From a virus (Duplodnaviria; Caudoviricetes): a stretch of DNA of 56,873 bases. Positions 17,604-52,265 of the stretch are shown piece by piece (the stretch's first letter is position 1; each line of letters starts with the position of its first letter). The stretch lies in IMG/VR virus record IMGVR_UViG_3300025809_000002, positions 1-56,873 of that record; one strand, 5' to 3'. Position numbers and translations under genes: made by a program. The notes beneath the pieces are model-generated. The model was not told the DNA's origin, did no database searches, and was given only the letters and a program-made list of their open reading frames with translations.

Positions 17604-20600
17604 TTACTTCCTGCTAGCCAGTCCACCCTTTGCCAACTTAGAAGCTGCTTCTTGGATGGCTCTGGTGGCTGGTACTCTGTTATCTGATTTACGGATATCA
17701 TCCATGTTGTCTGCAATCTTACGCAGCAGCTTAGCTCTCTCCACAGACCCCTGCTTCTCTAACACATCTGCAATGTTTCGCAGTGGGGTGGGATACAAAG
17801 GTGAAGCAGCCACCCGTGCTGTGTACTGCTGACCCATCCCTGTCTTTGTTGATGTGATCTTTGCAGCTGCAGCGTAGGATTTAAACAATTCACGCACAGC
17901 TTTGTATGAATTATTAGCAGCGATCCTCTGCTCTTTCTCTGGGAGTGCTTGGAATTTCTTAGTGTCGTTAGCAACAGCTGCATATGAGTTATACATCTGT
18001 ATAGCTGCACTACGCTTCTCAGCAATCGGCTCATAATCAGCAAGCTTACTTGCCGCAGACTCATCTGCTTTGTTAATCATCAGCTTGTCTGCTTCAACAA
18101 ATGCATCCTCTGTTTCATTCATGTTACCTGTGCGAGGTAGAGATAATGGGCGAGTTGATAAGGGGTCACCACTAATGCTCTGAGCAATGACATCCAAGTC
18201 TTGATTGTTATAAGCTTCTCTAGGCATGTTTACACGGCTGAACAAGTAGTCAGCATAAGGCATCTTTGTAGAAACAATAGCTGACGGGTCTCTTCCACCA
18301 AAAGAACCTGTATTAAATTGCAAGTTTAAGTCTTTGGTGAAAGACGGAGCAGCCACTTCCAGCTCTGTCTGTTTAAACCTTTCTCTTTGTGGTTTAGCAA
18401 AACCTGACTTAGCCAATCCTTCTGCTCTATTTGGATTACCGTGGAAGAGTTCAATCGGAGGTGTGTCTTTGTACTTAACACGAAGACGATCTAGTTCCTT
18501 TTGTTTCTTCTGTGCAAGATCTTTAAACAATGATCTATCTTTTGCTTTACTTGGGTCAGCTTCTCTTTTATTTAATACTCTAAAGTCACCTTGTGTGATA
18601 CCAATAACAGAATCTTCAACACCTTCTACCTTTAGCTTAGGGAATCGTTGTGTACGAACCTCACGTATCTGTTCAATCATATCATTACGATCATTCAGAT
18701 TGTTAATTGTTTTCAACGGACCTTTGATTGCACGGTCGGACACCATAACAACAGGCTCTTCATCAACAGGCTGCATCAAACCTTTAGTAGTTGGCGGAGC
18801 TTCGGCTTCCTTCTGTGCAACAGTCTTGGTAAAGTCGTAGGCACCTTCATCATCTATGAAGTCAAAGATGCTGCCAGCACCGGGGTGTGGTTCGTCATCT
18901 ACATCTTTGCCCATGTGAATAAACACAGTGTTGTCATACTTCTCTGGGTGGTTCTTCTTTAAGAACTCCATTGAAGAAGCACCCTCAAACTCTGAAGCCT
19001 TTGCTTCAGCAGCAGCAACTTCTTCTGGTGCATACTTAGACAAACCACTGACTTGTATTGTGGAAGGAGGTATCGCTTCTTCTGTTTGCTTAGCTAGCGA
19101 TGCTTCAATTTCTGGGGCTACAGGGGGCGTAGCTTTGACGGCAGCTTTTTTCTGCATCTCTTCCATCAGATCTGCTGATGTCTTCTTGCCTGAAGATTTA
19201 ACCAATCCTTTTAAAGCTGCTTTACCTACAAAGCCGCCAGCAGCCATCTCTATAGCTTTCATTTTTTTCTCGTACACATCTATAGCCATGTAGTCTTTCG
19301 CTTTTTCCAGCGTTACACCATCATGATCATCAGCATACATCTCATTGATAAGCATCCGCTTTTCTTGAGAGAATTTATTGTATTTATTTTTATACACTTT
19401 CTGTATATCAGCGGCCTTGTATGTACCATTGACAATCTTCTTAGCTATAGCTGTGCTACGGTTAATACTGCTTTTTAAAGCAAGGCGTTTCTTCAGCGGG
19501 GATAATGCTTGATATGTAGGACTCTTAAGTGTATTACCAACATTTCTCATCACTTGATTGTTAGCTTCCTCAGTATATAAACGGTCGTATTCTTTATCAC
19601 CAGAGGGACTACCATACAAACGCCAAGCCTCAAAGTTAAGTTTGGCAACTTCCCTTTCAATAGGATTTTTATATGGATCTTTTCTAAAACCAACTAAGCG
19701 GTTAAAGAACTGACCTTCTCTAATGATAGGTCCTTCACGTAACCGAGGTATTGCTTCAGGTAAATCTTCTTTCCATCCGGGAATCCTAGACTGTATACGT
19801 TTCTTTACAGCGTCTGTATTTATAAGAGGTAGGTCACCCTCAAAACCTAAAGCGTTTACTGCCGGTCCTACAATTGGTACATCTTTAACTCTAACAGTAG
19901 CGTCTGTATCAATAACATTAGGGTCACGGGCAACAGCCCCTTCTTCGTTAATTAAATCATACAAGTCATAGAAATTTTTAACGACAAAAGGTTGTGTAAA
20001 TCTAGTAGCAAAATCACCAAACATCTTACCAACAGTTATAGCCCACTGCTCTGCTTCTTTTTCTGTATCAATAGAAGCAATAAGCTGATCTGCTATTACG
20101 TTTTGAGAACCTGCTGGCATCTTCATGCCGACAACAGCTTGATAAGCGTCTGATATTTTATATGGAACACCTTGTTCAGCCCGTGCGAATAAGTCAGCAA
20201 CAGCAAAGTAAGGAGCAAGAGGGAACAAGGCACGAATATCTGTAGTGCTTCCATCATCATTCTTAACGTTGTACCACTCTGTATCTAGATTATTCATCCT
20301 GTAATCGTATGCAGCCATCAGACCACCAAGTCCAACACTGCCTTGCATAACTTTTAAATTACCGTCCCGCAAAGCTTTTGTAGCTTTGTCTGTTTCGCCT
20401 GCATTTTTAGCAATAATGTATTTAGCATAATCAGAGCCACCTCCTACAAGACCTCCGATAGGACTATATCTATACTGGAAAGCCATAGCATTAGCCATAA
20501 ATCTAGGGAAAGGAATAGCTAATGAGCTGCCGGGCCATTGCTCAATAAGACGAATAATCCTCCCGGCTCCTGCTTCAAAGGCTCCTTCTATACCTCTCTT

Positions 20601-22754
20601 GCCGGGCTTAGGCATATAACTAAACGAAGCTTTTAGTGCATCATCAACAGCACGGCTAAGGACTGCTGTAGGAATTAGCTTACCTTCCTGTATCATCTTG
20701 TACATATCCATGCCTTGCCTACGCATACTTGTCTCAACGGAGGCAGTGAAGATAGCTCGTCTAAAGAATACATCCTGTGCTGTGTTTAGTACGTTAGCCA
20801 TCTTACCTATACGAGAGATATCTCTGTTAGATGTTTCTTGTAAAGCACTAAGTAGGTTGTTGCGTAGGGTAGGAGAATGCTCTAGCAGAATGTCAGTAAC
20901 CTCACCAGCCAGTCCGTTCTTTTTCATGTATACAAAAGTGCGGGTAGCATCTTGGAGACTGCCAGCTAAAGAATCTGCTGCTCTCTTAAAACCTTTACCT
21001 TGAACTCCATCTTTAACTGCAACACCTAAAGAATAAAGAAGACCTTCCATGATATCAGAGCCAGACTTAGCAGTTAGACCTATAGCAGTGCCTGCAACGT
21101 TACGCATAGTGGTATCAACGCCACTGGTAATCCACGCCTTACCTTCTCTCTCTACACGGTTGACTCCATTTAAACCAGCACGGAATATTTCCCAAGCTCC
21201 TGTAGATTTCTCATCGTAGAGGTCCTTCATTTGCTTATCAAACTCAGGATCAGCACCTCTAAGTCTTTTCATCAATTGAGATGCATTAGAGTATTGCTGC
21301 ATAATTCTAGCAGCATCGGACACCGTCACCTTATTTGCCGCAGCAAAGTCAGCAGGGGTTAATCCCTCCGCACGAATAGCTCTTTCTAACACAGCATCAT
21401 CAATGGTATCTAAAGAAGCAAACACCCTCTCAATAGCATCACTTGTTTTCTGTGATGGCTTAATCATAAACTCAGGGTCATCTTGAATGACACGCAACGC
21501 AACACGCACAGCTCTGCCACTAAGTTCAGTGGCAATCTTAGCGTCCACCATAGCGCTGGCTGGTCCAAACTGATCTAGTATCTTAGCGCCTTCTTTCTTC
21601 ACGAAGTTAGAAACTTCTTCATCAATCTGTTTATTAACAGGATCAATTAGTTTCTTCTCCAAGGAAGTAACAGGAGATGTAGGTGACTGAGGAATAACTT
21701 CCTCTGCTCTTTTCTTTAACTCTTCTTTAAGAAAGCCTTCTTTTGGTTTTGTTCTAGTAGCGGCTTTACCACCAGCATAACCAGCAGTGGCTCCAGATAG
21801 AAGCATAGCAGCGCCTACTCGCCAAGGGTTAAGCTCATCCACCTCTTCACCCGCTGCCTCAGACACTGCTTGTTGAATGCGCTGATCAACAATATCTCCA
21901 CCACCGCCAACAAGAGCTTCAGTGGCTACAGATGTACCAATAGTGGTGGCTTTCTTAATGGCTTCAGAGGTGGCTTTACTTACTGCAACGCCAGCCCCTT
22001 TACCAAAGATAAAACCTAGGTAGTTTAGAGGGTCAGTTACAATTGCTTTAACAGCATCAGCATAAGGACGGAAACCTGCCTGACCTCCCTTCTCAGTGAC
22101 GCCTGCTGTTTCTTGGTACACCTTATGGACAAGAGCGGTCTTTGCCGCATCCTCTGGAGAAGCGTTGCGGATGTAGTTAAGCTCAGGTAATGCTTCCATG
22201 AGAACGTTAAGCTCTTTCCCTCTCATGCTCTCCATCCAATCAGCCACGAATTCTTGTCTAGTTTCGGTGGTCTTCTCACCACGTCTCATTCTAATTAAGT
22301 CTTCGGTTGTAGCAGTGCGATCAGATTCCAGATTAGTTATGTCACCTTTAAACTCACGGCCTGATCTAGCTTTAGCGTAGTCTTGGATAATATTAAACAG
22401 ATCATCCCTTTGCCATAAGTCATCAAACGTGTATGTAGAAGGGGCGCTCTTTTCTGGCTCCATATCCATACCAGCAAACTCGCTAGTGGGGTCAATGGGC
22501 ATGAAGCCTGCTGTAGGTACGTCAGAGGTGGTTGCTACAGGTGTTTCGTTTAACTGGCGAAGTTCTTGTTCATAGTCAACTGGCTGCTCTGTTTTAGTTT
22601 CGGTGGTCTGCTCACCACGCCTCATGCTAATTAAGTCTTCGGTTGTAGCAGTGCGATCAGAGTCAAGACTCAGTTGGCGTAGCTCTTCCTCGTAATCAAC
22701 AGCCTGTTCTGCTTCTAAATTCCGCAGCTCTTCTTCGTAGTTAATATCTGCCAT
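17604..22754 (-). CDS. Large internal virion (ejection) protein, 1716 aa, with ART-like C-terminal region
   Basis: Size and last position in the late arm; helical composition; FHG...SFT...ETE segment. Confidence 0.75.
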   Translation of the reverse strand: MADINYEEELRNLEAEQAVDYEEELRQLSLDSDRTATTEDLISMRRGEQTTETKTEQPVDYEQELRQLNETPVATTSDVPTAGFMPIDPTSEFAGMDMEPEKSAPSTYTFDDLWQRDDLFNIIQDYAKARSGREFKGDITNLESDRTATTEDLIRMRRGEKTTETRQEFVADWMESMRGKELNVLMEALPELNYIRNASPEDAAKTALVHKVYQETAGVTEKGGQAGFRPYADAVKAIVTDPLNYLGFIFGKGAGVAVSKATSEAIKKATTIGTSVATEALVGGGGDIVDQRIQQAVSEAAGEEVDELNPWRVGAAMLLSGATAGYAGGKAATRTKPKEGFLKEELKKRAEEVIPQSPTSPVTSLEKKLIDPVNKQIDEEVSNFVKKEGAKILDQFGPASAMVDAKIATELSGRAVRVALRVIQDDPEFMIKPSQKTSDAIERVFASLDTIDDAVLERAIRAEGLTPADFAAANKVTVSDAARIMQQYSNASQLMKRLRGADPEFDKQMKDLYDEKSTGAWEIFRAGLNGVNRVEREGKAWITSGVDTTMRNVAGTAIGLTAKSGSDIMEGLLYSLGVAVKDGVQGKGFKRAADSLAGSLQDATRTFVYMKKNGLAGEVTDILLEHSPTLRNNLLSALQETSNRDISRIGKMANVLNTAQDVFFRRAIFTASVETSMRRQGMDMYKMIQEGKLIPTAVLSRAVDDALKASFSYMPKPGKRGIEGAFEAGAGRIIRLIEQWPGSSLAIPFPRFMANAMAFQYRYSPIGGLVGGGSDYAKYIIAKNAGETDKATKALRDGNLKVMQGSVGLGGLMAAYDYRMNNLDTEWYNVKNDDGSTTDIRALFPLAPYFAVADLFARAEQGVPYKISDAYQAVVGMKMPAGSQNVIADQLIASIDTEKEAEQWAITVGKMFGDFATRFTQPFVVKNFYDLYDLINEEGAVARDPNVIDTDATVRVKDVPIVGPAVNALGFEGDLPLINTDAVKKRIQSRIPGWKEDLPEAIPRLREGPIIREGQFFNRLVGFRKDPYKNPIEREVAKLNFEAWRLYGSPSGDKEYDRLYTEEANNQVMRNVGNTLKSPTYQALSPLKKRLALKSSINRSTAIAKKIVNGTYKAADIQKVYKNKYNKFSQEKRMLINEMYADDHDGVTLEKAKDYMAIDVYEKKMKAIEMAAGGFVGKAALKGLVKSSGKKTSADLMEEMQKKAAVKATPPVAPEIEASLAKQTEEAIPPSTIQVSGLSKYAPEEVAAAEAKASEFEGASSMEFLKKNHPEKYDNTVFIHMGKDVDDEPHPGAGSIFDFIDDEGAYDFTKTVAQKEAEAPPTTKGLMQPVDEEPVVMVSDRAIKGPLKTINNLNDRNDMIEQIREVRTQRFPKLKVEGVEDSVIGITQGDFRVLNKREADPSKAKDRSLFKDLAQKKQKELDRLRVKYKDTPPIELFHGNPNRAEGLAKSGFAKPQRERFKQTELEVAAPSFTKDLNLQFNTGSFGGRDPSAIVSTKMPYADYLFSRVNMPREAYNNQDLDVIAQSISGDPLSTRPLSLPRTGNMNETEDAFVEADKLMINKADESAASKLADYEPIAEKRSAAIQMYNSYAAVANDTKKFQALPEKEQRIAANNSYKAVRELFKSYAAAAKITSTKTGMGQQYTARVAASPLYPTPLRNIADVLEKQGSVERAKLLRKIADNMDDIRKSDNRVPATRAIQEAASKLAKGGLASRK

Positions 22755-22757
22755 AGC

Positions 22758-24194
22758 TTATTCTCCTATTATGGCATATCCATTTTTTTTCATATCTTCC
22801 ATGATTGTAGCTACATCTGTTGGTAAGGTATTATTACGGTTTTCAGCTCTCTTAGCTGCCATTTGTCTAATTTGGTCCATTGTAACTTTTTTCTCTTGAG
22901 GAGCTTCCTGTGCTGCTGGTGCTGCTTGTCCTGTCGCTGGCGGTAACACCACCTTTGGCTTTTCTTGTCCATCGGTATTAGGATCAGCAGAAGGCATAGG
23001 CGTAAAGATTGGTCTACCTTGATCATCAAAAGGTATTAGCATGGAGCGCAGAGCGGTAGCTACGTCTGTGTTAACAGGCACACCATTTTTATCTAGGTAA
23101 GGCTGTGCCATTTTCTCAATAACAGATCTTGCATAATCGTTCACTTCTTTTCTCTTCGCAGAATCTTGACCGATATAGTTGTAAGTACCACTACCATCTG
23201 GTAATGTCTCAATGATTAGATCTTTTGACTGCTCTGGACCAAATTTTTCATTGAGCGCTCTAGACGCAGTGCTAGAGAACAGTCGTGCTAATATACTAAC
23301 AGTAGGAACACCGCTGTCTTCTTTCTTGCCCTTAGCTTCAATAGCTAATACTCTGTCGTATTCTTTTTCAGCTGCTGCTCGTATCTCTGGTGTTTCACCA
23401 TTTAGCATAGTCATCTTTAAAGCACCAACAGTTGAAGCCCAGTTAGCTTTGTCTGGGTCAAGAGTATCTTTAATTGTTCGTAAACCATCGTAGGTATTCT
23501 TAGCTGAGAGAGCTTGCTCACTATCTTTACCATATTCAGAAACAGCATCAGCATATGACATACCTGCTTCTTGTAAACGCCCTTCAATTGTTTTCTTCTT
23601 CTTCAAGAACCCCGAAGAAACACTACCCATAGAACCTAAGTCAGAAACAGGGGCAGCGCCTTCTGCATATGCGTCCAGCTCGTCAGCACCCACACCATAC
23701 TGCTCAGCGTACATCTGTCTTTTTCTTTCGCTGGGAGAAACATCAATGAAACCAAGCAGTTTATTAGTCTGTCCTTCAGCCGGTTTCACTTCACCAACTT
23801 GTGGCTGCACTCTCTGTTGCACCAAGTCCATTGCTGTTGTAAATTTTTCAGGCATCTCTCCAACTTTTACATAGTTAGATAAGATATTAGCTTTCTCATC
23901 ATCACTGAAGCCCTCTTCATGAGCCTTCATCAAAGTGTCGTAGTTAGTCTCGGTACTGATAGCAGCTGCTATTTGCTGTTCCGTCGCCATAGGGTAAACA
24001 GAGCTAAAGTTTTTAACTCTAGTTTCATAAACCTTTCTTAACTCGGAGGCTTCTTTCTGCCGTGTCAATCTGTTAGAAGCGGCTAAGTTAAAACGATTAG
24101 AAAGAATCTTTTCTTCTTTTTCCCGCTCATCTTCAATACGAGTGGCTAAAGTTTTAGCGAAGCCTGTAGCAAAACCTTTTAAATTAATCCCCAT
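22758..24194 (-). CDS. Internal virion protein
   Basis: Position; amphipathic N-terminus GFATGFA; helical. Confidence 0.65.
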   Translation of the reverse strand: MGINLKGFATGFAKTLATRIEDEREKEEKILSNRFNLAASNRLTRQKEASELRKVYETRVKNFSSVYPMATEQQIAAAISTETNYDTLMKAHEEGFSDDEKANILSNYVKVGEMPEKFTTAMDLVQQRVQPQVGEVKPAEGQTNKLLGFIDVSPSERKRQMYAEQYGVGADELDAYAEGAAPVSDLGSMGSVSSGFLKKKKTIEGRLQEAGMSYADAVSEYGKDSEQALSAKNTYDGLRTIKDTLDPDKANWASTVGALKMTMLNGETPEIRAAAEKEYDRVLAIEAKGKKEDSGVPTVSILARLFSSTASRALNEKFGPEQSKDLIIETLPDGSGTYNYIGQDSAKRKEVNDYARSVIEKMAQPYLDKNGVPVNTDVATALRSMLIPFDDQGRPIFTPMPSADPNTDGQEKPKVVLPPATGQAAPAAQEAPQEKKVTMDQIRQMAAKRAENRNNTLPTDVATIMEDMKKNGYAIIGE

Positions 24195-24660
24195 TATTTT
24201 CTCCTCTTGCCATCAAGCCTTTTGGCTGAGGTTCTTCTTTATCCTTAACAGAAGATTTTACTTCTGCAATAATTTCTTTTAACATTTTTTCACTAACAGC
24301 TTTAGGTTTCTTTGAATCTTCAGGGGTAGTTTTATAACCAACACCACTGATATCGCCAATAGTCTTAATGATCTCAGCAATAATAGGGAAGGCAATTAAA
24401 CCAACATCAACAGAGTGGATGCCTTGCATTACGGATGCCTTCATAAACGTGTTAGCTAAGTCTGTTACAGTGGCATCTCTAGAAAGAACGTCAGCGATGC
24501 CGTCAACAGCCTCATCGCTTGTTAAGCGTTCTGTGTAGAAGTCTACGACATCAGCAAGTTTCACGTACTTTGGAGGCTGCTCCCAAGGATAATTACCCGG
24601 CTCACCTGTTAGTGACATACCGGGTACGGGGTTAGTATTGAATACAAGATCAGCGTCCAT
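24184..24660 (-). CDS. Putative virion protein
   Basis: P.PG.SLT.EP.NYPWE.PP motif. Confidence 0.7.
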   Translation of the reverse strand: MDADLVFNTNPVPGMSLTGEPGNYPWEQPPKYVKLADVVDFYTERLTSDEAVDGIADVLSRDATVTDLANTFMKASVMQGIHSVDVGLIAFPIIAEIIKTIGDISGVGYKTTPEDSKKPKAVSEKMLKEIIAEVKSSVKDKEEPQPKGLMARGENNGD

Positions 24661-24853: not shown

Positions 24854-24858
24854 AATTA

Positions 24859-27333
24859 TTAACTTGTTACAACAGCAGCAACCACACTTCCGATTGCGTT
24901 CCACAATGAGCCATCCTCAGCAGAACCTGCTGCTGATACCTTAGCTTCTGCCTCAAGCTGAGCAATGGCTAAGTTGGTCATCCTATTGACAGAGTTTTCA
25001 TACGCATTAAAGGCGTTAGAAATTTGATCTCTGTACAACTGCGTCTCATTATTATACTCAGCCAGTGTCATCTGTGTCATGTTCTGAGCATTTAAATAAT
25101 TAGCTGAGTTCTCTGCAGCAGTGTTAGCTGTGGAAATATCTCTACGCCATTGTGCATTAGCTTGATCAATGACCAATCGGTTTGTGCTGTTAAATTGATC
25201 TCTGGCATTCTGTGCCTCTGTGTTTAGTTTAACAATGGCATTAGCTTGGTCAACGTTAAACTGCTCAACCGCATTCTTTTGTGCGGCATTGAACTGATTT
25301 ACCTGAGAAGTTAGAGAAGCCATGAACTGGTTAGTCTGGTTTTCTGAGGTGGCATTGAATTGCTTAGCAGCATTGTCAGCAGCAGTGTCGGTTAACAAAG
25401 CATTTGTATTTGTTTGCGCTTTAAATATACTTGTCTGCTGCTCATTACCTAAGTTAGCCAAGTCCATCTGCAAGAAGCTCTGTGCATTAACAACCTGAGC
25501 TTGTTGTCTGTTGTTTAAGTTAGTTGTCTCAAGTGTTGCAATCTGTGCAGCCTCTGCCATCACCACAGCTTGTTGGTTGCTAAGGTTAGCAAGGTCTACA
25601 CTCTGCGCCATGCGAGCATTCTCCAAAGCAATCTGTTGACTGGCAGTGAAGTTCATGTTAGCAATGTCAGAAACCTTAGCAGCGTTTGTCACCTTCACTT
25701 GGAAAGCCTGATCAAACTCCTGCCCCAAGAAAGCAGCACGTTGCTGAGCAGCTAACACAGCTGTCTGCTGCTTGTTGCTCAGGTTCTGCAGGCCCATCTG
25801 CTCAAACACTTTAGCATCAGCAGAGGCAATAGGAACAGCAGCTTCCATTGCTGCCTGAATGATTGCTTGACCTGCCATACTAGAAGCGCTAAGTCCTCTA
25901 GCTGACATCTGTGCCACAGCAGAGCGCATTGTAGAAGCTGCCCACGGTGGTGGGTTGCCTGCGTCAAAGTTAGACAGCACTTTATTAAGCTGACCCTGCA
26001 CAGTCATGTCTTCAGTGACAGTGCCTTGAGCAGCAGAGGCTGCGGTTTGTGCTGCCAATGCCTCAGCCTGTGTCATGTCAACACCAGTGCCGCTGATCAT
26101 CTCACCAGCCTGCGCTGTTCTAGCATCAGGTGCATCCACCTCCTGCGCCTTGTCCAGTGTCTCTGCTGTCAAATCGCCCACAGCTGTTGTTGTGGGGTCT
26201 TTCTCTTGTGCTTTCACTTTTTTTGTTACATCGCCCTCGGCTGCGCTTAGTTTATCTAATTCTGTTTGCACCCCGGCAGCTGCTTCAGACGCACTCATCG
26301 TCTCAGCTGTCATAGGGGTAGGTGCTCCTACTGTAGCTGCTGTGCCCGCTTGGTCTGCTGTGCCTTGAGCTGCTGTTGCAGGAGCTAAGCCTTCGGTGCC
26401 AACGTCCTGCTCAGCAGTGGCAGTGATCTGAGCAGCTGTCATTGTAGGTGCGGCACCCGCAACAGGCTTACCTTGATCGTCAGTTGTTGTTCTACTTGCT
26501 AAGGCTGCTTTTGCTTGGGTAAGTTCTGTCTGAGCGGCTGCTTTTGAAGCGGCATCTGTAGCAGCAGCCACCTTAGCTTCTAGGTCCGTCACTGTTTTTT
26601 CAAGTTGAACCATCTGAGGGGATTTAACATCTGCGGGAGCTTGCCCAGTAAACGTGTTGTACCCTGCTTGAATATTAGAATCAAGAAGACCTTTACTCCT
26701 AAAATATTTAACAGCTGCTGCTCGTGTTTCCTCTGTATCTGCACCGCCAGCTGAGGCTATGTATTGTTGATAAGCAGCGGCAATTTGAGCAGGGGTGCTT
26801 GTAGCAGAAATGTTTTCTGCAAGGTCTAATTTAGGCGGGGTAGCTGCTGGCGCTGCTGGTGTCGTAGCTACTGGTGCTGCTGGTGTTGGTGTCGTAGCTG
26901 CTGGTGCTGCAGCAGTTATAGCTGGTGTTGTCGCTGCTGGCGTTGGTGTTGTATACGCTGTATACCCTGCTTGAATATTAGTGTCACTAATACCTTTATC
27001 TTGTAGAAACTTAGCGGCTGCTACTCTGTTAGCCTCAGTGTCACCACCAGCAGTATCAGTATATGCTTTATAAGCAGTACTAATCTGTTCAGGTGTGCTA
27101 TCAGCTGTTAATTGTTCTGCTATGTTTCCGCCAGCAGCATACTTACGCACCTTACGTTGGCTGGTCAATCCACCCTTTGCCATGCGCTGAACATACTTGT
27201 TAGTCACCATGTTATACTTGGCAGACAGTGCAGGAGAAGAAGCAAGGAACGATTCAAAGCCCTGCATAGGCCCTTCATATCCAAGCTTACGAGCAAGGAT
27301 TTCTTTTTGTCCTGATGTAAATTCTTTTTTCAT
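24859..27333 (-). CDS. Internal virion protein (Ala/Gln-rich, QFN repeats)
   Basis: NL.N.QQ and QFN.. repeats; hydrophobic C-terminus. Confidence 0.7.
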   Translation of the reverse strand: MKKEFTSGQKEILARKLGYEGPMQGFESFLASSPALSAKYNMVTNKYVQRMAKGGLTSQRKVRKYAAGGNIAEQLTADSTPEQISTAYKAYTDTAGGDTEANRVAAAKFLQDKGISDTNIQAGYTAYTTPTPAATTPAITAAAPAATTPTPAAPVATTPAAPAATPPKLDLAENISATSTPAQIAAAYQQYIASAGGADTEETRAAAVKYFRSKGLLDSNIQAGYNTFTGQAPADVKSPQMVQLEKTVTDLEAKVAAATDAASKAAAQTELTQAKAALASRTTTDDQGKPVAGAAPTMTAAQITATAEQDVGTEGLAPATAAQGTADQAGTAATVGAPTPMTAETMSASEAAAGVQTELDKLSAAEGDVTKKVKAQEKDPTTTAVGDLTAETLDKAQEVDAPDARTAQAGEMISGTGVDMTQAEALAAQTAASAAQGTVTEDMTVQGQLNKVLSNFDAGNPPPWAASTMRSAVAQMSARGLSASSMAGQAIIQAAMEAAVPIASADAKVFEQMGLQNLSNKQQTAVLAAQQRAAFLGQEFDQAFQVKVTNAAKVSDIANMNFTASQQIALENARMAQSVDLANLSNQQAVVMAEAAQIATLETTNLNNRQQAQVVNAQSFLQMDLANLGNEQQTSIFKAQTNTNALLTDTAADNAAKQFNATSENQTNQFMASLTSQVNQFNAAQKNAVEQFNVDQANAIVKLNTEAQNARDQFNSTNRLVIDQANAQWRRDISTANTAAENSANYLNAQNMTQMTLAEYNNETQLYRDQISNAFNAYENSVNRMTNLAIAQLEAEAKVSAAGSAEDGSLWNAIGSVVAAVVTS

Positions 27334-27335
27334 AT

Positions 27336-43770: not shown

Positions 43771-44619
43771 TTAACGTGCATTTCCTGTAACGTCATACAC
43801 GAATTTATTGGTGCGCTGTGCCGTTAGGATTGCCTCAGCATTTTTTTCAAACTCGTTCATAGACATCTTCTCCACCTGACTCTCATAGATGAGACCTTCA
43901 GTGTTGGCAGCAGATGGTGCCGAGCGTGAGCCTCGACCAATAGCAGAAGCTAAATCTTTGTCAGAAGTTTTCTTACTAGCTTTAATACCTTTGTCTGACT
44001 TATAGAGATCAATAGCTCTAGCCGCAGCTTTTGCATCAGTATCATTGTCATACAAAGCTTGCTGTACCCAATTAGGTTGTTCTTCAACCCATTCATGAAA
44101 TTCATCTTGATCACGTATTTCTCCAAAATCAGGGTGCAGGCGTGTCAGCTCAACTTCTGCTTTTTCTCTAGCATTGTTTTTCTCAGCTTCATCAATCTTC
44201 TTCAGCCGATCTTCAATACCAGTGGATTGTTCTTTTGCTTTCTTAATTGCAATTGTTTCTACAATCTTGTAGACATCAGGGTACTCTGACGCCCAAGCAT
44301 TAAGTTCGTCTTCTGACTTAGGTAGACGAATTTCTTTCTTGGTTGTTTTTGTTAGTTGTTCTTTTAAAGAATCAATCTGCGTTTGCAGGTCATCTTGCAA
44401 CTTTTGACTATGGCGACGAAGGTCACCGTAGCGTTTCTTAAATGTCCTCTCTTCAGAACCCTCTGGTTCTTTCTCGTCATCGTCTTTCTCAACAGGGTTT
44501 TCTCTAGCCTCTGTCAGCGCTTTAATCTCTTCCTCTGTTTGACGAATTCTTTCTTCACTAGCATTACGCCGTCCAAATGCAACCACTGGTTTTGCAACAG
44601 GTATAATAACTTCACTCAT
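43771..44619 (-). CDS. Scaffolding protein
   Basis: Coiled coil, E.TFKKRYGDLRRH, HPDF; upstream of the capsid gene. Confidence 0.8.
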   Translation of the reverse strand: MSEVIIPVAKPVVAFGRRNASEERIRQTEEEIKALTEARENPVEKDDDEKEPEGSEERTFKKRYGDLRRHSQKLQDDLQTQIDSLKEQLTKTTKKEIRLPKSEDELNAWASEYPDVYKIVETIAIKKAKEQSTGIEDRLKKIDEAEKNNAREKAEVELTRLHPDFGEIRDQDEFHEWVEEQPNWVQQALYDNDTDAKAAARAIDLYKSDKGIKASKKTSDKDLASAIGRGSRSAPSAANTEGLIYESQVEKMSMNEFEKNAEAILTAQRTNKFVYDVTGNAR

Positions 44620-44744: not shown

Positions 44745-46199
44745 TTATTTCTTAGCAGCTAAACCTTTTTTAGTAGGTTTTGCTTTTGCAGGACGTTTCT
44801 TTACCATACCGCCTTTAGCCATATTACCGGCATCATCTTCCTCACCGTATCCGCCGGAGCCATCATCCATGCTAAAGCCGCCGGGGGTTTCACCACCGCT
44901 AGGGCTAGAGCTATAAACGTTAGGGTTGGAGCTAACGGGTGCTGAAGGCCTACCGGGGTCTGCCGCATCAGGATTAACTTCGTTGGCATCTACATCGGTG
45001 CCTTTAGCACTTTCAGTACCAACAACCGAGGCAATCTCTCCATTGCTATTATAGGTAACAATCGCATTCGGGTTTGAAGAGTCTACACCTTTAAGTGCTT
45101 TATCATATAAAGATTTTTGTGCTTTAGCGTATGGCGTCTCAGGGATAAAAGAAAACTTTGATCGTGCATAGGTTGCTACTTTTGCAGCTGCCTTAGCTGC
45201 TGTTGGGTTTTGTGCGTAGAATTGAGCTAGCTTACCATAATCAGTTTCTGTCGTTGCTTGCGTTTCTCCGCTTCCGCTTACGTCTGTAATAGATTTAGCA
45301 GCTTCTTTTTCATCAGCGGCTTTACCTACAAGTTTTTCTACAGGTTCTTTTGTTTCTTTAAAACCTTCAGGAATAGATGTAGAAGGTTTACCATTTAAGT
45401 ATGTAATAAACATAACCCTGCCATCAGGGTGTTTAAAATATCTTACATCTACAACAGGGTTCTTAGTCCAATCCATCTTAGTAGCATCAGCTTCTGTAAC
45501 AATACCCCCAAGAGCAAACCCTTCTGGCATTGCGTCATCACCTTCTTCTGCCATGATGTCATCAATCTCTGCTTCAAAATCTTCATCACCTTGTTCGCTA
45601 AATGTTTGGTCAGGATTTGCAACTTCCTCAGCATTCCCCATCTGGCCCATTTCGTTCATACGTTGTAGGCCCTGCTTTGCTTTATCCCGCATAGCCATCA
45701 GCTTCTCTAGGCCAATGTAACGAACAACATCAGCAGGCACAACAAACTCGCCCTCGCTAAGCTGTGCTGGAATATCATCAGCAACTTCTTCTCGTAAAGA
45801 ACCCGGAGGAACTTCTACACCGTTGACGCTTTCGCCACTGTCATCCATCATGCCGCCTTCGGCGAATAGTTTATTCATTTGTTCCACGTTGCCACCCTTT
45901 GCATATTTCTCTGGAGCATTAGCGCCCCCTGCATCTGATTTTCTAATAGCATCATCTACAGCTTCTTTAATAGACTCAAAAGATCTATACTCGTTTTTAG
46001 TATTTAAAGCATTCTCAATTGCTTCATCTTCGGATACAATCTGACCGTTCCAAAGTGAAGGAATGTTTGTGGGCTTACCTTTGTTTAAGCGGGGGTCTGT
46101 GACAGTGATACTAACCTCACTCATATCTTCACCTGAATCGCTCTTAACAGTAGGAAGACCATCGTGTGTCTTTAAATTATTTTGACCCATTAATTTCAT
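44745..46199 (-). CDS. Virion-associated protein with DDIPA.LSEGEFV domain and four AxGG motifs
   Basis: Translation; position between portal and scaffold. Confidence 0.75.
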   Translation of the reverse strand: MKLMGQNNLKTHDGLPTVKSDSGEDMSEVSITVTDPRLNKGKPTNIPSLWNGQIVSEDEAIENALNTKNEYRSFESIKEAVDDAIRKSDAGGANAPEKYAKGGNVEQMNKLFAEGGMMDDSGESVNGVEVPPGSLREEVADDIPAQLSEGEFVVPADVVRYIGLEKLMAMRDKAKQGLQRMNEMGQMGNAEEVANPDQTFSEQGDEDFEAEIDDIMAEEGDDAMPEGFALGGIVTEADATKMDWTKNPVVDVRYFKHPDGRVMFITYLNGKPSTSIPEGFKETKEPVEKLVGKAADEKEAAKSITDVSGSGETQATTETDYGKLAQFYAQNPTAAKAAAKVATYARSKFSFIPETPYAKAQKSLYDKALKGVDSSNPNAIVTYNSNGEIASVVGTESAKGTDVDANEVNPDAADPGRPSAPVSSNPNVYSSSPSGGETPGGFSMDDGSGGYGEEDDAGNMAKGGMVKKRPAKAKPTKKGLAAKK

Positions 46200-46392
46200 C
46201 CCTTAATTGCTTCAGCTTCTTAAGAGCCATGACTGCGCCTTGTGCCCTGTGTATTTCTACAGTATTGGTGGCCTGCTCTAAAGACTTCTGCTGAATGCTG
46301 GTGTAATAATCAACCATATCTTCAAAGGCTTGCCACTGAGTAGGAGCTGAGACCAGAGGCTTTAAAGCACTTAGCCACTTCTTCTCTGTCAT
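46177..46392 (-). CDS. Small conserved protein downstream of portal
   Basis: HRAQG...L..L..LRD motif. Confidence 0.75.
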   Translation of the reverse strand: MTEKKWLSALKPLVSAPTQWQAFEDMVDYYTSIQQKSLEQATNTVEIHRAQGAVMALKKLKQLRDEINGSK

Positions 46393-48506
46393 TGCATCGG
46401 TCCTTGTGGAGCCGCTGGTGCAGCAGGAGGTGCTGCCTGTGCAGGAGCGCCACTAAATCCTTGCTCACCCGGAGCAGGTGCTGTACCCACGCCCATGTTG
46501 CCGCCACCACCACCAGAAGTATCTGACACAGGAGGAGGACCACCAGCACCAGCAGCAGCTGGCTCAGGGGCTGGTTGCATCTTCTGCAGAATCAACGCCT
46601 GTCTAGCTGCTTCGTCCATGTTGTTCGCCACCAAGTCGGGATCAAGATCCATACTCTTAGCAATTTCACGCACAATGTAAGGCAGCTTAGCAAATGGAGC
46701 CAGTGCAGGGTTCTGAATAACTTGTAAGAATTGCAGCAGACGCTGTGAGCGCACTTCGTTCTGCATCAAGCTTTCAGTACCACGGGCTTTAACTTCTAAG
46801 TCACCAGCAGCTTCTGGGTCATAATCAAACTGCATGTTAAAGGCAAAGAAAGCCTCTCCCATTGGACGCAGTAGATAATCATCCACGTTCTTAATCACAG
46901 TCTTGATGCCGCCGCTTGCCGCATTCATCAGCATAGAGATGCCAGAGGCTGTGCGTCCAACACCAGCTACGCCAGTTTGACCGTGCGAGAATGAAGGAAG
47001 ACCTGTAGACTCATCAGCAAGCTGCCGTGCTTTGTCAAACATCTGCAGGTTTTCTTGCGAGACGTTGGGGAACTTAGTACCAAAAAGCGCTTGACCGGGT
47101 GCGCCCCCTTGTCGGCGAAACACTTTGCCGGGGTGGATGGTTAAGTCTTGACCGGGAACAAGGTTTGTTTCATCAACCTCAAACACAAGATTGCCCGACA
47201 GGACCGCATTATCCACCGACAGACGCATAAACCCATTCATAAGAGTTTGGGTATCATCCATGTTCTCGGCGATACCGACACCAAAAAAGGAGTAGGGGTT
47301 TAGTTCATATGGAACAGCATAATACGGAATCCTGACGGGCTTAAAAGGATTTAAAACAAGACGGATAATCTTACCATTGGTAAACCAGATGTTAGCTTGC
47401 AACTCGGGCATATCTTCTAACTCTTTAGGAATCTTAATGTCATTCTGCTCTAAGAGTTCAACATCAACAACGCCCCAGTACTCTAACACCTCATAACGCT
47501 CAACACCAGTGTCAGTTTGATAATCATTTAAATCATCTTCCCAAGATTTCTTAACATAGTCAGGACCATTAGCAATCACCATGTCAATGACGTTGCTACG
47601 AAACATAGGACGCTTCTTCAGCCCACGCAACTGTGTGCTGCTCATCTTATGACGCTCAATAAAGTATTGCATCTCATCAGTGTTGCTGGCGTCAGGATCA
47701 GGGTACGCATTCCACACACTTACATGAGAAGTTTGTGGCATTGTCTTGATGATGGGATTATATTTACCTTCTTCGTCCCATCGTGGATATTCTTTATCCA
47801 CAGCAAAAGGACCCTTCATAATACCTGTACCAAACAGCGCCATCTCAAAAGCAGCAGATCGTAGTTGCTTGTTGGCGTTGCTCTCGTCAAGCTGGTCCAT
47901 AATCTTCTTCTGCATCTTCTTAGCAGCAACCATCGCCGGGTGGAAAGTGACTGAAGTTGGTGTTGCGCCTGCACCTTCTTTAACGTCTAGCTCAGCAAGC
48001 TTCTCTTTCAAAGGACCAAGCATATCTGCTAGTGATGTTGCAGTGGCACCTTTAGGAAAGTCTTTACCGTCTCCTTTATAGCCAAACAATGAAGATTGTT
48101 CTTCTGGCATATCTGCCATCTTAGGGTCAGCCTCAACGTGTACGCTCTCAGCTACACCCTCTGGTAGGATGGTGGGTTCAATAGAAAGAGGGAATGTATT
48201 ATTAGCAAACAATACATCAGTGATCTGACCATACGCAGCTAGAGTCTTAGTCTTTGTAACTTTTATAAAGACACGACTCTTCTCTGCCTCAGTAAATTGA
48301 ACGTCAGTGCCGTAGATTCCACGATAGTTGCGATACGCACGGAGCCAACGATCTTCGTCAGAGCGACGAGCATCCTCAGCACGGGAGAAGCGCTCATCCA
48401 AAAAGGCCATCAAGCCATTAGCTTGTAATATATCTTCGTAGACATCCTTGCTGTCAGGAAGTCCTACAGCTTTATCATCCATAAAAGGGGTGTCAGATTT
48501 GTTCAT
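46389..48506 (-). CDS. Portal protein
   Basis: 705 aa after TerL; LFGTGI.KGP, FFG.G.AE and RTASG.SM motifs. Confidence 0.9.
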   Translation of the reverse strand: MNKSDTPFMDDKAVGLPDSKDVYEDILQANGLMAFLDERFSRAEDARRSDEDRWLRAYRNYRGIYGTDVQFTEAEKSRVFIKVTKTKTLAAYGQITDVLFANNTFPLSIEPTILPEGVAESVHVEADPKMADMPEEQSSLFGYKGDGKDFPKGATATSLADMLGPLKEKLAELDVKEGAGATPTSVTFHPAMVAAKKMQKKIMDQLDESNANKQLRSAAFEMALFGTGIMKGPFAVDKEYPRWDEEGKYNPIIKTMPQTSHVSVWNAYPDPDASNTDEMQYFIERHKMSSTQLRGLKKRPMFRSNVIDMVIANGPDYVKKSWEDDLNDYQTDTGVERYEVLEYWGVVDVELLEQNDIKIPKELEDMPELQANIWFTNGKIIRLVLNPFKPVRIPYYAVPYELNPYSFFGVGIAENMDDTQTLMNGFMRLSVDNAVLSGNLVFEVDETNLVPGQDLTIHPGKVFRRQGGAPGQALFGTKFPNVSQENLQMFDKARQLADESTGLPSFSHGQTGVAGVGRTASGISMLMNAASGGIKTVIKNVDDYLLRPMGEAFFAFNMQFDYDPEAAGDLEVKARGTESLMQNEVRSQRLLQFLQVIQNPALAPFAKLPYIVREIAKSMDLDPDLVANNMDEAARQALILQKMQPAPEPAAAGAGGPPPVSDTSGGGGGNMGVGTAPAPGEQGFSGAPAQAAPPAAPAAPQGPMQ

Positions 48507-48528
48507 GTTTTAGTTATACCATAAATTA

Positions 48529-50109
48529 TTAGTAACCAAAAGTTTTATCTGTTGGTTGATACACACGTTGTGAAGCTGGATTGTAATCAAAAATGCTTGA
48601 ACTACGTGGGCGAGACATAAGACCATAACGTAGGGCGTCATAGGTGTGGTCATTCTTAACCTTAGTGTCTACGTCTTCTACGTTTGTTTTATCAAGAGGC
48701 AGCGAAGGCAAGTCAGCAATAAGCTGAGTGCAGTTGCTAAAGATTGTCATTCGGGGTGCTTCGGTGAACGGATCAATCTGCAAGCGACGATGCACCTCGT
48801 TCTTACCAGCCACACGGCTACCAGCACTCCTATCAGCAGGACGCCAACGGCACCCCTTCATAATCATACGTTCAGCAATAGAAGGACCAGTGTCGCCCCG
48901 CTTATGCCAGCAGCTACTATCCAACACACCGTAACGAATTGGTTCATTATCTTCCATTTCTAGCACCATATTGGCTAAATCTTCTGCCAATACCTTAGTG
49001 ACGTAAAGTTCACGGTATACAACGATGGACTCATCAGGAGCAACAGCAAACCAAATAACAGCGGAGAAACTTCCATAACCATAATCACAAGCCCTAAAAC
49101 GTACCCAATCTCTTGGGATGGCATAGGGTTCTACAACGTGTATGGCCCTGTTAAACTCAGAGAATGCTGCACCTTCTGCAACATCCCAGTTACCATCAAG
49201 CAATTGCTTGCGCTGATGCTCTGGCAATGACAGCAACATCGTCTCATAGTCGCCAGTCTGTGCCAGATGCGGGTTGTCCACCAGTTTTGCTGGTATAAAC
49301 CTACGTTTAAATAGGGGGTCTCCCTCTTTACTGTGTCCTGTAGGGTAGGTCATCACCTCCCCTGTCTCTGTATCCGTGGCCCAGAAGGACTTACCTGCTG
49401 GTGAAGGGTCAATAAAGGTCTTCTTAACCCACGAATGCCCCTTGTTACCGGGGTTTGTTGACGCTCTCATGTACACAGGCAGGTCTGGTGCCGTGCTACG
49501 TAAGCGTGAACGCATATAATTCCACGCAAAAGGCGTTGCCCACTGCGTAAGCTCGTCAAATCCTATCCAACTGAAGGAAAGTCCTTGATATCTTAAGACA
49601 TCTTCGTCCCTATCTAGGTAGGACATCCACAATCTACCCCCACTTGGGGCTTCCCACTGCATCTTTCGCTCACTCCACTTGATGCCGGGGTAGATTTTGG
49701 GGTATAGCTCTTGGCTTTTCCAAATAAGTTCCCGTAATTCCTCTGTAGTGTGGCGCAAAAGCAGCCCAGAAAACTGTGGGTGGGGCAAATACCGCAAAGG
49801 ATCTGCCAACATTGCGTAGGATTTACCTCCACCAGCAGCTCCACCGTACAAAACCTCCCTATCTGCCGCCGCCAGAAACGCTGTCTGCGGTCCGGGGTTG
49901 GGAGCAAAGATAATATTCTCATTCTCTGCTGTCGGCAAGCTCTGTAGCTGCCCGCTCTCTGAGGGCGACGTAATGATCGCTGCGGAAGAAGGGGTTGGTT
50001 TCTTTGCGCTTTGTTTTTTCTTCGTACTCTTCAATTTTGTTGAGCGCTTGCGTGAGCCTTCGGGCAAGCTCCCTGTAGTATCTAGCTTTGCTCTTATAGG
50101 ACTGCTCAC
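48529..50109 (-). CDS. terL: Terminase large subunit (start uncertain)
   Basis: GGAAGGGKS, FDELTQ, STNPG, DYG and DH.YDALRY motifs. Confidence 0.95.
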   Translation of the reverse strand: MSSPIRAKLDTTGSLPEGSRKRSTKLKSTKKKQSAKKPTPSSAAIITSPSESGQLQSLPTAENENIIFAPNPGPQTAFLAAADREVLYGGAAGGGKSYAMLADPLRYLPHPQFSGLLLRHTTEELRELIWKSQELYPKIYPGIKWSERKMQWEAPSGGRLWMSYLDRDEDVLRYQGLSFSWIGFDELTQWATPFAWNYMRSRLRSTAPDLPVYMRASTNPGNKGHSWVKKTFIDPSPAGKSFWATDTETGEVMTYPTGHSKEGDPLFKRRFIPAKLVDNPHLAQTGDYETMLLSLPEHQRKQLLDGNWDVAEGAAFSEFNRAIHVVEPYAIPRDWVRFRACDYGYGSFSAVIWFAVAPDESIVVYRELYVTKVLAEDLANMVLEMEDNEPIRYGVLDSSCWHKRGDTGPSIAERMIMKGCRWRPADRSAGSRVAGKNEVHRRLQIDPFTEAPRMTIFSNCTQLIADLPSLPLDKTNVEDVDTKVKNDHTYDALRYGLMSRPRSSSIFDYNPASQRVYQPTDKTFGY

Positions 50110-50395
50110 TTCTTACCCTTTTTAATAACCCTGTGTAGGTGATGCTCCTGCCTGTTCTTGTTGTTAACCAAGCTGCTACCTGTCTGGCGCTGTATTTCTT
50201 TAAATGCTTCTTTGCCTGCTCTAGAAAGTCTAGCTCCAGCGGGATCGGCTTCCATACTCCCTCATCGTCTGGGTCCTCTTCGTATCCAAACGGTGCAACC
50301 ACGTAGTTGATGGGCTTAGGAATAGACACCCATACATCCTCTTCACGAGGCTGAGGCAATATCCAAGTACCGAAGTCTCTTTCATTCTGCTGCAT
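49919..50395 (-). CDS. HTH/recombinase-like DNA-binding protein
   Basis: PFGY and YS.RQVA.WL...TGR.I...GL motifs. Confidence 0.7.
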   Translation of the reverse strand: MQQNERDFGTWILPQPREEDVWVSIPKPINYVVAPFGYEEDPDDEGVWKPIPLELDFLEQAKKHLKKYSARQVAAWLTTRTGRSITYTGLLKRVRSEQSYKSKARYYRELARRLTQALNKIEEYEEKTKRKETNPFFRSDHYVALRERAATELADSRE

Positions 50396-50750
50396 CTTTT
50401 GCTGGGAGAATCATGATACCGTTGCTGGCCTGAATCTCCATCTTCTCTGTCTTAACAACACCTGCACGATCTAACAGATCTTTAGCAGCGTTAAGCTTCT
50501 CTTTGATGCCAAGCTCTGTTGGGTCAACCAATCCACTAACAACTGCCATTGCCGCTCTAGGAGCGTTGGTTGCAATGTACAGCTGAGTGGCCTCAATGAT
50601 CTCTGCCTTCAGTGTGTCCATGATCATCTTAGTGGCGTAGCCTTCGCTGTAGCCAGCAAGCTTACGAGCCTTTGCAGGGTTGCCACCAGCCTCTCCGAAA
50701 AGCACCTCAATGAATTTCTGCTGCTGTTCGTTTAATTCTCTCTTAGCCAT
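50382..50750 (-). CDS. terS: Terminase small subunit
   Basis: L.E.Q.KF...A.KLAGYS and AA..LLDRAG motifs. Confidence 0.75.
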   Translation of the reverse strand: MAKRELNEQQQKFIEVLFGEAGGNPAKARKLAGYSEGYATKMIMDTLKAEIIEATQLYIATNAPRAAMAVVSGLVDPTELGIKEKLNAAKDLLDRAGVVKTEKMEIQASNGIMILPAKDAAE

Positions 50751-50761
50751 ATTGTCTCTCT

Positions 50762-51825: not shown

Positions 51826-51827
51826 GA

Positions 51828-52265
51828 TTATTTACTCCCTGATGCTTTAACACTAGCTCCGCAATTTGCGTAGCCGCCTTTTGCCATCTTCTTAGCTGGC
51901 TTCTTTTTATCCGTCAAACCAACCATCACAGCAACCACTGGTGACTGGCGGGTCATCTCTTTCTTAGCAGCAGGCTTCTTAACAGCACCACCTTTAGCCA
52001 TAGCACTGTCCTTCATCATGCTGCCGTCCGGCATCTTGTGCATGCCTTTCATTTTAGTGGCATCGCCCCCGTACATGTAGCCCTTCTTCTTAACAGCACC
52101 ACCCTTAGCCATTGTCTCACCGCCCTTAACAGCCTTGTCATAGAACTCAAGCTCAATGGCGTTGGCTCTATCTAACATCTCATTACGAGCTTCCTGTGGA
52201 ATGCTCTTGTCTTTTGCTTGCGCTCTTAAACGCTTAATCTCTGCTGCCGCTGCTTTCTTGTCCAT
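51828..52265 (-). CDS. Basic protein with MAKGG repeats
   Basis: Three MAKGG copies, HKMPDG motif; AAGGA RBS. Confidence 0.75.
   Translation of the reverse strand: MDKKAAAAEIKRLRAQAKDKSIPQEARNEMLDRANAIELEFYDKAVKGGETMAKGGAVKKKGYMYGGDATKMKGMHKMPDGSMMKDSAMAKGGAVKKPAAKKEMTRQSPVVAVMVGLTDKKKPAKKMAKGGYANCGASVKASGSK

Follow-up and report, generated by a model that had tools for sequence, protein, structure and literature searches.

What does a five-residue motif do in four late proteins of a marine podovirus? We analysed a 56,873-base stretch of viral DNA (IMG/VR record IMGVR_UViG_3300025809_000002; hereafter the window), which is the whole virus record and carries direct terminal repeats. We assign it, as a complete genome, to the HMO-2011-type marine podoviruses because its portal, capsid and terminase are nearest to those of MW202701, of the Roseobacter phages CRP-1, -2, -9, -207 and -603, and of Puniceispirillum phage HMO-2011. 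Phages of this type form a dominant and widely distributed marine viral group (PMC9038755; here and below, articles are cited for individual passages). Four late proteins of the window carry the motif [MFYL]-A-x-G-G, and one of them, a 484-amino-acid (aa) protein encoded next to the portal gene, also holds a conserved segment around the tetrapeptide GEFV. The first-pass annotation of this DNA had read motif and segment as a system that tags and processes virion cargo. The cargo part is plausible for all four proteins, and the protease part is not supported, no protease but an M15 endolysin having been found in the scans described below. We tentatively favour reading the motif as a short linear peptide, conserved and placed in disordered linkers and C-terminal tails, whose parent proteins would most likely be carried in the virion and ejected; the GEFV module would anchor cargo on the portal-tail axis, and free copies of the motif would act as a docking or exit peptide.

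The motif in the window and its homologs

Scanning open reading frames (ORFs), we found 11 copies of [MFYL]-A-x-G-G in four minus-strand late ORFs, which code for proteins of 145, 484, 824 and 1716 aa (Table 1). All lie where the first-pass annotation had put them, its coordinates being the low end of each 15-nucleotide (nt) motif and the high end lying at +14. The motif had also been said to be absent from early proteins, capsid and fibres, and none of the 50 other ORFs of at least 100 aa has the strict form. With I or V allowed, one other ORF matches (IANGG; 28802-29245), and across six frames the single additional match is LARGG at 54131, in an ORF-poor stretch. The five MAKGG copies are coded by differing codons, showing that the repeat exists at the protein level. 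When each of the 54 proteins (16,400 aa in all) was shuffled, [MFYL]A.GG occurred 2.04 times on average, against 11 observed (maximum 6; 0 of 300 shuffles reached 11); MAKGG was observed 5 times against 0.02, and [MFYL]AKGG 7 times against 0.07. Since the motif was defined post hoc, after looking at the data, these figures overstate its significance, and conservation in relatives weighs more. The motif is real and non-random. Lysine and arginine runs adjoin the copies, as inspection of the sequence bore out, and the extended form reads hydrophobic-A/x-[K/R/E]-G-G-hydrophobic-x-basic. Three of the four proteins have a motif 9-24 residues from the C-terminus.

The 824-aa protein offers a large set of homologs. 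A search with its residues 1-80 returned 91 proteins (505-1250 aa), every one of which keeps MAKGG at position 50-51; in 58 of them a second hydrophobic-A-x-GG falls within the first 120 residues, and divergence starts right after this second motif. AlphaFold2 (55 alignment rows; mean predicted local distance difference test (pLDDT) 68.3) places helices at residues 7-16, 23-32 and 34-52, with pLDDT 76-90 over 7-52 and below 50 over 54-70, and the predicted bundle ends exactly at MAKGG51. Among named relatives, the module stands ahead of the conserved C-terminal half also where its position is internal (MAEGG497 in CRP-1, MAIGG447 in CRP-2). PF13884, the intramolecular chaperone S74 that typically forms the C-terminus of fibres and spikes, was matched in 11 of the 91 homologs and PF13946 in four; the N-terminal module thus stands on very dissimilar protein bodies. 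Further along the 824-aa model stand two tandem helical repeats of ~60 residues (aa 71-128 and 170-229; pLDDT >90) with Pro/Thr/Ala-rich linkers between them, and a very long C-terminal helix (630-823).

The 1716-aa protein repeats the motif at its very end. Its MAAGG1170 falls where the 1218-aa MW202701 ortholog ends (FNKGGLATQM...), and it therefore looks like that ortholog with a 540-residue extension and a new tail. The new C-terminus, LAKGGLASRK, matches on an unrelated protein the GGLAS[RK]K tail of the GEFV-bearing family, whose C-terminal pattern is ...hydrophobic-x-x-GGL-x-KKK...K-[KR]-GGLAS[RK]K (broad form in 43 of 70 complete ORFs, strict form in 27). Residues 1195-1716 gave no usable match in the ESM Atlas. 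At the other end of the protein (aa 1-170), two direct repeats occur twice each, VDYEEELRQL and DRTATTEDLI.MRRGE.TTET. The 145-aa protein belongs to no Pfam or PHROG family; it has a homolog in MW202701 (108 aa, two MAKGG, ending MAKGGMAKKGC) and a weak one in CRP-1. Upstream of TerS, HMO-2011 encodes a 50-aa ORF made almost entirely of MMRGGMA-type repeats with Lys runs (4503-4655) and a 345-aa protein ending FNRGGMVKKRKK (2642-3679); judged by their sequences, these small basic proteins carry a relaxed motif that lacks the Ala.

The GEFV module beside the portal

The 484-aa protein consists of a small N-terminal domain, the GEFV module, a small beta domain, a disordered acidic and Gly-rich region and a basic C-terminal tail. 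Three of its motifs flank a very conserved GEFV segment of ~90 residues, within which aa 143-166 read PAQLSEGEFVVPADVVRYIGLEKL; the codon of the GEFV glutamate (Glu151) is 45747-45749, as first annotated. A search with the module (aa 95-195) gave 3,087 clusters at E<=1e-3, of which 2,358 reach E<=1e-10; the matches are proteins of 126-1590 aa with 60-70% identity, and a second search found at least 7,467 GEFV proteins of 497-2000 aa, nearly all unnamed. The recurring architecture is [YF]AKGG, 13 residues, F-x-[ED]-GG, ~38 residues, GEFV and then a helix. Across 17 sequences 37 columns of the module are invariant, and an alignment of 60 shows no variation in any sequence at the second-motif GG or at 33 further positions. 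The segment is 64% identical to that of HMO-2011 and 62% to that of CRP-1, where portal (67-69%), capsid (68-70%) and terminase (67-69%) serve as comparison; outside the segment, the 484-aa protein does not align to either phage. By these identities, the GEFV segment is as conserved as portal, capsid and terminase, within an otherwise hypervariable protein: family members range from 122 to 1530 aa, with the domain starting anywhere from residue 2 to 957.

Gene order is constant, with the gene between portal and scaffold, where the first-pass annotation had placed it in the window. Among 80 IMG/VR loci (70 with complete ORFs; counts on either side need at least 1 kb there), a portal lies upstream in 67 of 67 informative loci, and a homolog of the 282-aa protein, named scaffold by its position only, lies downstream in 66 of 66. 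Individual passages of PMC9038755 held no description of a post-portal protein.

For the 484-aa protein (60-row alignment), AlphaFold2 gave a mean pLDDT of 61.7, with confident small domains at ~30-90 and 250-285 and low confidence at 98-104, 144-150, 220-234 and 454-466. The GEFV stretch (100-200) scored 49-77, and the segment is not predicted to fold alone as a globular domain. In the models of the 484- and 824-aa proteins, all six motifs are predicted in or at the edge of disorder beside folded parts; the first-pass claim that motifs sit at domain boundaries thus holds for these six, and covers these only. Foldseek against the Protein Data Bank (PDB) returned nothing at E<=0.001 for either model, of which large parts are low-confidence, and PDB sequence searches with the module and its profile gave chance-level matches only. 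Pfam searches (E<=1) with isolated segments of the 484-aa protein, with the 1716-aa C-terminal extension and with the 478-aa protein had no matches.

Such constancy bears on whether the motif is a flexible-linker or turn sequence without a shared function, passed on as modules were shuffled. Linkers often contain Gly-Gly, the strict form is confined to a lineage, and HTVC033P has seven matches: its capsid protein has MADGG, and two fibre-like, Gly-rich proteins account for the six others, which are [YF]AGGG (mostly YAGGG) or MANGG; by their context, these are a different class, unrelated to the motif studied here. A plain linker is nevertheless very improbable, as MAKGG stays invariant in all 91 homologs of the 824-aa module while its flanks vary, the second-motif GG is fixed in all 60 GEFV sequences, and the same tail signature stands on unrelated proteins. 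Were the motif only a linker, its description would be useful annotation and no more.

The first-pass annotation had also expected motif enrichment across related proteomes and co-occurrence with GEFV. The GEFV profile finds the module in MW202701, HMO-2011, CRP-1, -2, -3, -9 and -207, and weakly in HTVC115P (1.7e-7); it has no match in HTVC033P or phiM6. Enrichment is clear in three of the seven GEFV-positive relatives, namely MW202701 (7 motifs observed vs a shuffle mean of 1.1), CRP-207 (6 vs 1.5) and CRP-2 (5 vs 1.2). The other four gave 3 vs 1.25 (HMO-2011), 2 vs 1.0 (CRP-9), 2 vs 1.5 (CRP-3) and 1 vs 1.5 (CRP-1), and the remaining genomes 2 vs 0.98 (HTVC115P), 1 vs 1.1 (CHOED), 0 vs 1.0 (phiM6), 0 vs 0.76 (Slicky01) and 7 vs 1.6 (HTVC033P). 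An 824-like protein with both module and motif occurs in 6 of the 8 GEFV-positive genomes (the window and the seven; CRP-9 has the module without GG, and CRP-3 has the motif elsewhere) and in 0 of the 5 without a strong GEFV match (phiM6, CHOED, Slicky01, HTVC033P and HTVC115P). The co-occurrence pattern therefore agrees with the expectation, but all positives belong to one clade and are not independent evidence.

This pattern is what would be seen if the GEFV segment acted as a hub, recruiting the 145-, 824- and 1716-aa proteins by binding their hydrophobic-A-x-GG peptides in trans, and it would suit such a hub that, among the 24 structural proteins of lambda (7,278 aa), the strict motif occurs only in the tape measure gpH, twice. 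We consider a trans hub unlikely. Besides the single clade, the GEFV absence in CHOED and Slicky01 is a tblastn result, the loci examined having excluded the portal region; motifs flank GEFV in the same chain in both the marine and the lambda-type family, which fits one module better than a reader with tags; and GEFV is not predicted as a folded binding domain. A complex prediction for the GEFV region (aa 92-240) with the 824-aa N-terminal module (aa 1-80) gave a score of 0.18 and a mark of 0.32, which speaks neither for nor against binding.

Tape measures, proposed cargo anchoring and possible cleavage

The first-pass annotation had pointed to, near the C-terminus of lambda gpH, a region resembling the GEFV segment, and the pattern is there exactly: FATGG733, GEFV754, SRIG and YATGG778. 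The lambda-type module was found by tblastn in 1,012 phage records; among the 40 matches listed, 30 are annotated as tape-measure or tail protein and 10 as hypothetical protein or not at all. Seven tape measures share G-F-[AS]-x-GG-Y-T-G-x-GG-K-Y-x-P-x-G-x-V-H-x-GE-[FYV]-V...R-x-G...L..L...G-Y-A-x-GG. The 1183-aa Mannheimia tape measure has three tandem copies of the module (F[AS].GG...GEYV...RLG), and the tape-measure module can therefore be duplicated as a unit.

We compared the two families by profile. A search with gpH 722-800 gave almost only near-identical E. coli tape measures, unsuited to a diverse profile, and the tape-measure profile was built from 6 phage records, lambda and one Mannheimia protein. 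Aligned by hhalign (243 vs 10 sequences), the marine GEFV profile matched the tape-measure module profile with a probability of 58% (E 9.8e-5), motif for motif except for a 12-residue insertion before GEFV in the marine module. Against four tape-measure PHROGs, the GEFV segment gave E-values of 1.9e-4, 3e-4, 9e-4 and 0.14. Feature by feature, the window has a hydrophobic-A/S-x-GG followed within ~20-40 residues by GE[FYV]V (FAEGG112 to GEFV150; of the seven tape measures examined, five have FA.GG and two FS.GG), and the hhalign alignment sets its acidic residue, R-x-G and L..L helix start after GE[FY]V, GEFVVPADVVRYIGLEKL, against GEFVFTKEATSRIGVGNLYRL. A second Y-A-x-GG ~20-25 residues after GEFV, which six of the seven tape measures have as YA.GG at short spacing, is missing here, the next motif being FALGG228. 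The marine module is probably homologous to the module near the C-terminus of lambda-like tape measures. Both (gpH ~730-785 plus C-terminal tail, on the lambda side) run through hydrophobic-A-x-GG, a Gly-rich stretch, P-x-G, GE[FY]V, an acidic residue, R-x-G, L..L and a second hydrophobic-A-x-GG, and a GGL-type tail occurs in both families: gpH ends MRDGGLFSGGGR and the Acba_11 tape measure RQGGLLSK. They differ in setting: the marine module belongs to a gene beside the portal gene of a podovirus, and the lambda module closes a long helical ruler whose gene lies in a tail cluster. We rejected the 484-aa protein as a whole tail tape measure, since its gene lies between portal and scaffold, portal and adaptor are SU10-type with a nozzle homolog, and no tape-measure Pfam family was matched.

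In our favoured reading, the 484-aa family would be a portal-neighbour cargo protein whose sole constrained part is a tape-measure-like anchoring module. Within the 484-aa protein the peptide is part of one larger same-chain module that runs from [YF]AKGG through F-x-[ED]-GG, GEFV and its helix, at the spacings given above, to a further hydrophobic-A-x-GG and a basic tail (GGLAS[RK]K in relatives). This module would anchor the hypervariable cargo protein on the portal-tail axis, much as the C-terminus of a tape measure is kept at the tip of the tail. The one ordered part of gpH in lambda structures is 818-849, which the gpI plug retains in the tip, and the module-bearing segment is not resolved there (PMC10721106, PMC12617516). 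The free copies in the 145-, 824- and 1716-aa proteins, often in a basic C-terminal tail, may be the same docking or exit peptide, marking other internal proteins. It could serve procapsid loading or hold proteins ready for ejection, the docking surface being a conserved face of the portal-adaptor-nozzle axis or the procapsid interior.

Several observations weigh against this reading. Homology to the tape measures is moderately supported by the profile probability above, and against lambda alone hhalign returned 6% (E 0.006). The downstream motif stands ~75 residues after GEFV here and ~24 in lambda. A strict motif lies no more than 25 residues from the domain start in only 35 of the 80 IMG/VR homologs, and within 70 residues after the domain in only 36; the last 45 residues hold it in only 14 of 70 complete ORFs, against 46 of 70 for hydrophobic-x-x-GG, and the strict form with Ala is, on these alignments, lineage-specific. 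HMO-2011, CRP-1, CRP-9 and CRP-3 do not exceed chance in motif number. The head, tail and internal proteins of T7 (14 proteins, 5,111 aa) contain one strict match, LAIGG in gp13, and with T7 internal proteins otherwise lacking it, the motif is not general to podovirus ejection proteins. Finally, we infer the virion location of the four proteins, their docking and the docking partner.

Known systems offer partial parallels to such an arrangement. Short peptides can direct cargo into a prohead, as the T4 capsid targeting sequence does; in T4 the gp21 prohead protease cuts this tag off the N-terminus, whereas no protease is detectable here and most motifs are internal or C-terminal. Phage polyvalent proteins (PMC5512222) and head proteins of the MuF/SPP1 gp7 type resemble the 484-aa family in having a gene next to the portal and a conserved part with hypervariable multi-domain extensions. 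The polyvalent-protein domain LPD23 was matched in 4 of 6 long homologs scanned, one of them above the cut-off (29.8 vs 27 bits), and was not found in the window's own 484-aa protein. Unlike MuF-type proteins, the latter has no MuF domain and no effector domain detected by Pfam. Cargo protein 1 of crAss001 (gp45) combines a compact portal-bound domain with a separate tail-held segment, ready for ejection (PMC10172136), a precedent for the arrangement that we propose. No sequence relation was found between gp45 and the 484-aa protein; a crAss_CARG1 match to the GEFV region (ESM Atlas 0.81) was at noise level, and the PF25725 hidden Markov model had no match in the window at E<=10.

We further considered whether proteins are processed at the motifs, with a cut behind Gly-Gly that frees targeting modules or cargo domains; the GEFV module itself, a protease of the host or a phage protease that escaped recognition could make it. 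Motifs do mark borders between modules, one following the N-terminal bundle of the 824-aa protein and another, at residue 1170 of the 1716-aa protein, falling where its ortholog ends, and the GEFV glutamate is conserved in the marine and tape-measure families. Lambda gpH is cleaved ~14 kDa from its C-terminus, with site and catalyst stated to be unknown (PMC12617516); a cut after FATGG737 would, by calculation, leave a fragment of 12.2 kDa. The first-pass suggestion that GEFV may be a protease is nevertheless not supported, as the 484-aa protein matches no protease family and its GEFV stretch is modelled with low confidence and not as a globular fold. Pfam and PHROGs revealed no protease among the late proteins scanned except the M15 endolysin, early-gene proteins being outside these library scans; six-frame searches of the window for S78 (PF04586), S77 (PF03420) and S49 (PF01343) found none, ClpP not having been searched on its own, and JAB (PF14464) and NlpC/P60 (PF00877) were absent as well. 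Related T7-type podoviruses are not known to have a prohead protease. As cut sites, motifs lying 5-25 residues from a C-terminus make poor sense. None of the upstream ORFs terminates in the motif in the eight loci that have an extra gene between portal and GEFV gene, which speaks against a polyprotein split there. Virions of phiRIO-1, though of a different group, showed no processing (PMC4819975). We therefore assign cleavage at the motifs a low probability. The adenovirus-protease consensus, (M/I/L)-x-G-G, was set aside for its different register, the hydrophobic residue here lying one position further from GG.

The basic surroundings of many copies invite yet another explanation, that motif and Lys/Arg run form a KGG/RGG-type DNA-binding tail, which would let small basic proteins and cargo tails be packed together with the genome and exit with it. 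MAKGGAVKKK and MAKGGMVKKRPAKAKPTKKGLAAKK are examples of strongly basic contexts, HMO-2011 has its 50-aa ORF with three MMRGGMA-type repeats beside other small basic proteins, and the small basic ejected proteins gp6.7 and gp7.3 of T7 have AFGGKK and AGG-type segments. Left unexplained are the acidic contexts of FAEGG and FALGG, the invariant GEFV core, and the motif in tape measures, at the tail tip away from DNA, and we regard DNA binding as an improbable role for the motif.

Extending the anchoring reading, the hydrophobic-A-x-GG, GEFV and GGL-tail unit might be one ancient exit-channel module common to the tape measures of long-tailed phages and the ejection proteins of an abundant group of marine podoviruses. 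These podoviruses would then carry a tape-measure relative beside the portal, free motifs would mark every protein that has to queue on the portal axis, and FATGG and YATGG of lambda would be the gpH to gpH* processing sites, which gpK might cut. We hold this to be a long shot. JAB peptidases have a preference for Gly-Gly. Lambda gpK (14276-14875) matches NlpC/P60 (3.4e-13) and, below the cut-off, part of Prok-JAB (6e-5); this tail-assembly protein went undetected when virions were analysed by mass spectrometry (PMC10721106).

What appears new here is the recurrent motif/GEFV unit tied to lambda gpH, the novelty of the motif being claimed as far as the literature was searched: no paper was found that joins "tape measure" with "GEFV", and the motif-string matches listed were unrelated, mostly primer sequences. 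The GEFV module is among the most conserved pieces of these genomes and occurs in thousands of metagenomic proteins without annotation. Its link to the gpH segment gives both fields a concrete target, as a handle on cargo loading in marine podoviruses and as candidate positions for gpH cleavage in lambda.

Late gene order and further observations

The late genes occupy the minus strand between ~52.7 and 17.6 kb and follow, from high to low coordinates, the order small basic proteins, TerS, TerL, portal, 484-aa gene, 282-aa gene, capsid, adaptor, nozzle homolog, fibre genes, tail assembly chaperone, holin with M15 endolysin, and the 824/158/478/1716-aa genes, a four-gene terminal block after the lysis cassette (Table 1).

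Table 1. Late-gene features and motif positions in the window
Feature	Position (nt)	Strand	Evidence or remark
145-aa very basic late protein	51828-52265	-	three MAKGG
MAKGG at aa 52, 89, 127 of the 145-aa protein	52098-52112, 51987-52001, 51873-51887	-	final one 19 residues from the C-terminus
TerS	50382-50750	-	late block
TerL	48529-50109	-	late block
SU10-type portal, immediately upstream of the 484-aa gene	46389-48506	-	PF23899 3.2e-24; phrog_332 7e-80
484-aa post-portal protein	44745-46199	-	four motifs and GEFV module
YAKGG99, FAEGG112, FALGG228, MAKGG460 of the 484-aa protein	45891-45905, 45852-45866, 45504-45518, 44808-44822	-	ORF scan
GEFV module (aa 95-195, including YAKGG and FAEGG)	45615-45917	-	GEFV tetrapeptide at nt 45741-45752
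282-aa protein between the 484-aa and capsid genes	43771-44619	-	phrog_13678; "scaffold" by position only
Major capsid protein, without motif	42415-43482	-	phrog_267 4.6e-64
SU10-type adaptor	41646-42353	-	family match
Nozzle homolog	40090-41646	-	family match
824-aa all-alpha protein, candidate internal/ejection protein	24859-27333	-	conserved Q/N/A-rich C-terminal half
N-terminal module of the 824-aa protein (aa 1-69)	27127-27333	-	predicted three-helix bundle ending in MAKGG, then YAAGG in a disordered linker
MAKGG51, YAAGG65 of the 824-aa protein	27169-27183, 27127-27141	-	ORF scan
158-aa and 478-aa genes between the 824-aa and 1716-aa genes, neither with motif	22758-24660	-	ORF scan
1716-aa protein, final gene of the late block	17604-22754	-	two motifs
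MAAGG1170, LAKGG1707 of the 1716-aa protein	19233-19247, 17622-17636	-	ORF scan

In size and order, the terminal block resembles the internal virion protein block of T7 (gp13-16), with one small and two or three large late genes, a likeness that we infer from order and size only. T7 (gp6.7, gp7.3) and the window also both encode small basic proteins before the portal gene, and adaptor and nozzle are related to the T7-type tail; the HMO-2011 protein gp44 is listed as a tubular tail B homolog (PMC4819975). The internal and small ejected proteins of T7 lack the strict motif and showed no sequence similarity to window proteins. The C-terminus AFGGKK of gp6.7, and VAGGLAGLAGG and RAGGKK in gp7.3, bear a loose likeness to the 145-aa class.

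The lysis cassette lies within the structural block (27638-28805), just upstream of the 824-aa gene, and comprises an EF-hand protein (105 aa), a holin with three transmembrane segments of the gene transfer agent (GTA) type (131 aa) and an M15 peptidase endolysin (152 aa). The ORF-poor stretch at ~53.4-55.2 kb, which separates the late block from the plus-strand genes that come next, is possibly a regulatory or origin region. A 128-aa basic protein (52291-52677) unites PHROGs 17747 and 14910, and HMO-2011 and CRP-1 have the counterparts of its two halves as separate small genes, pointing either to a gene fusion here or to a split in those two phages.

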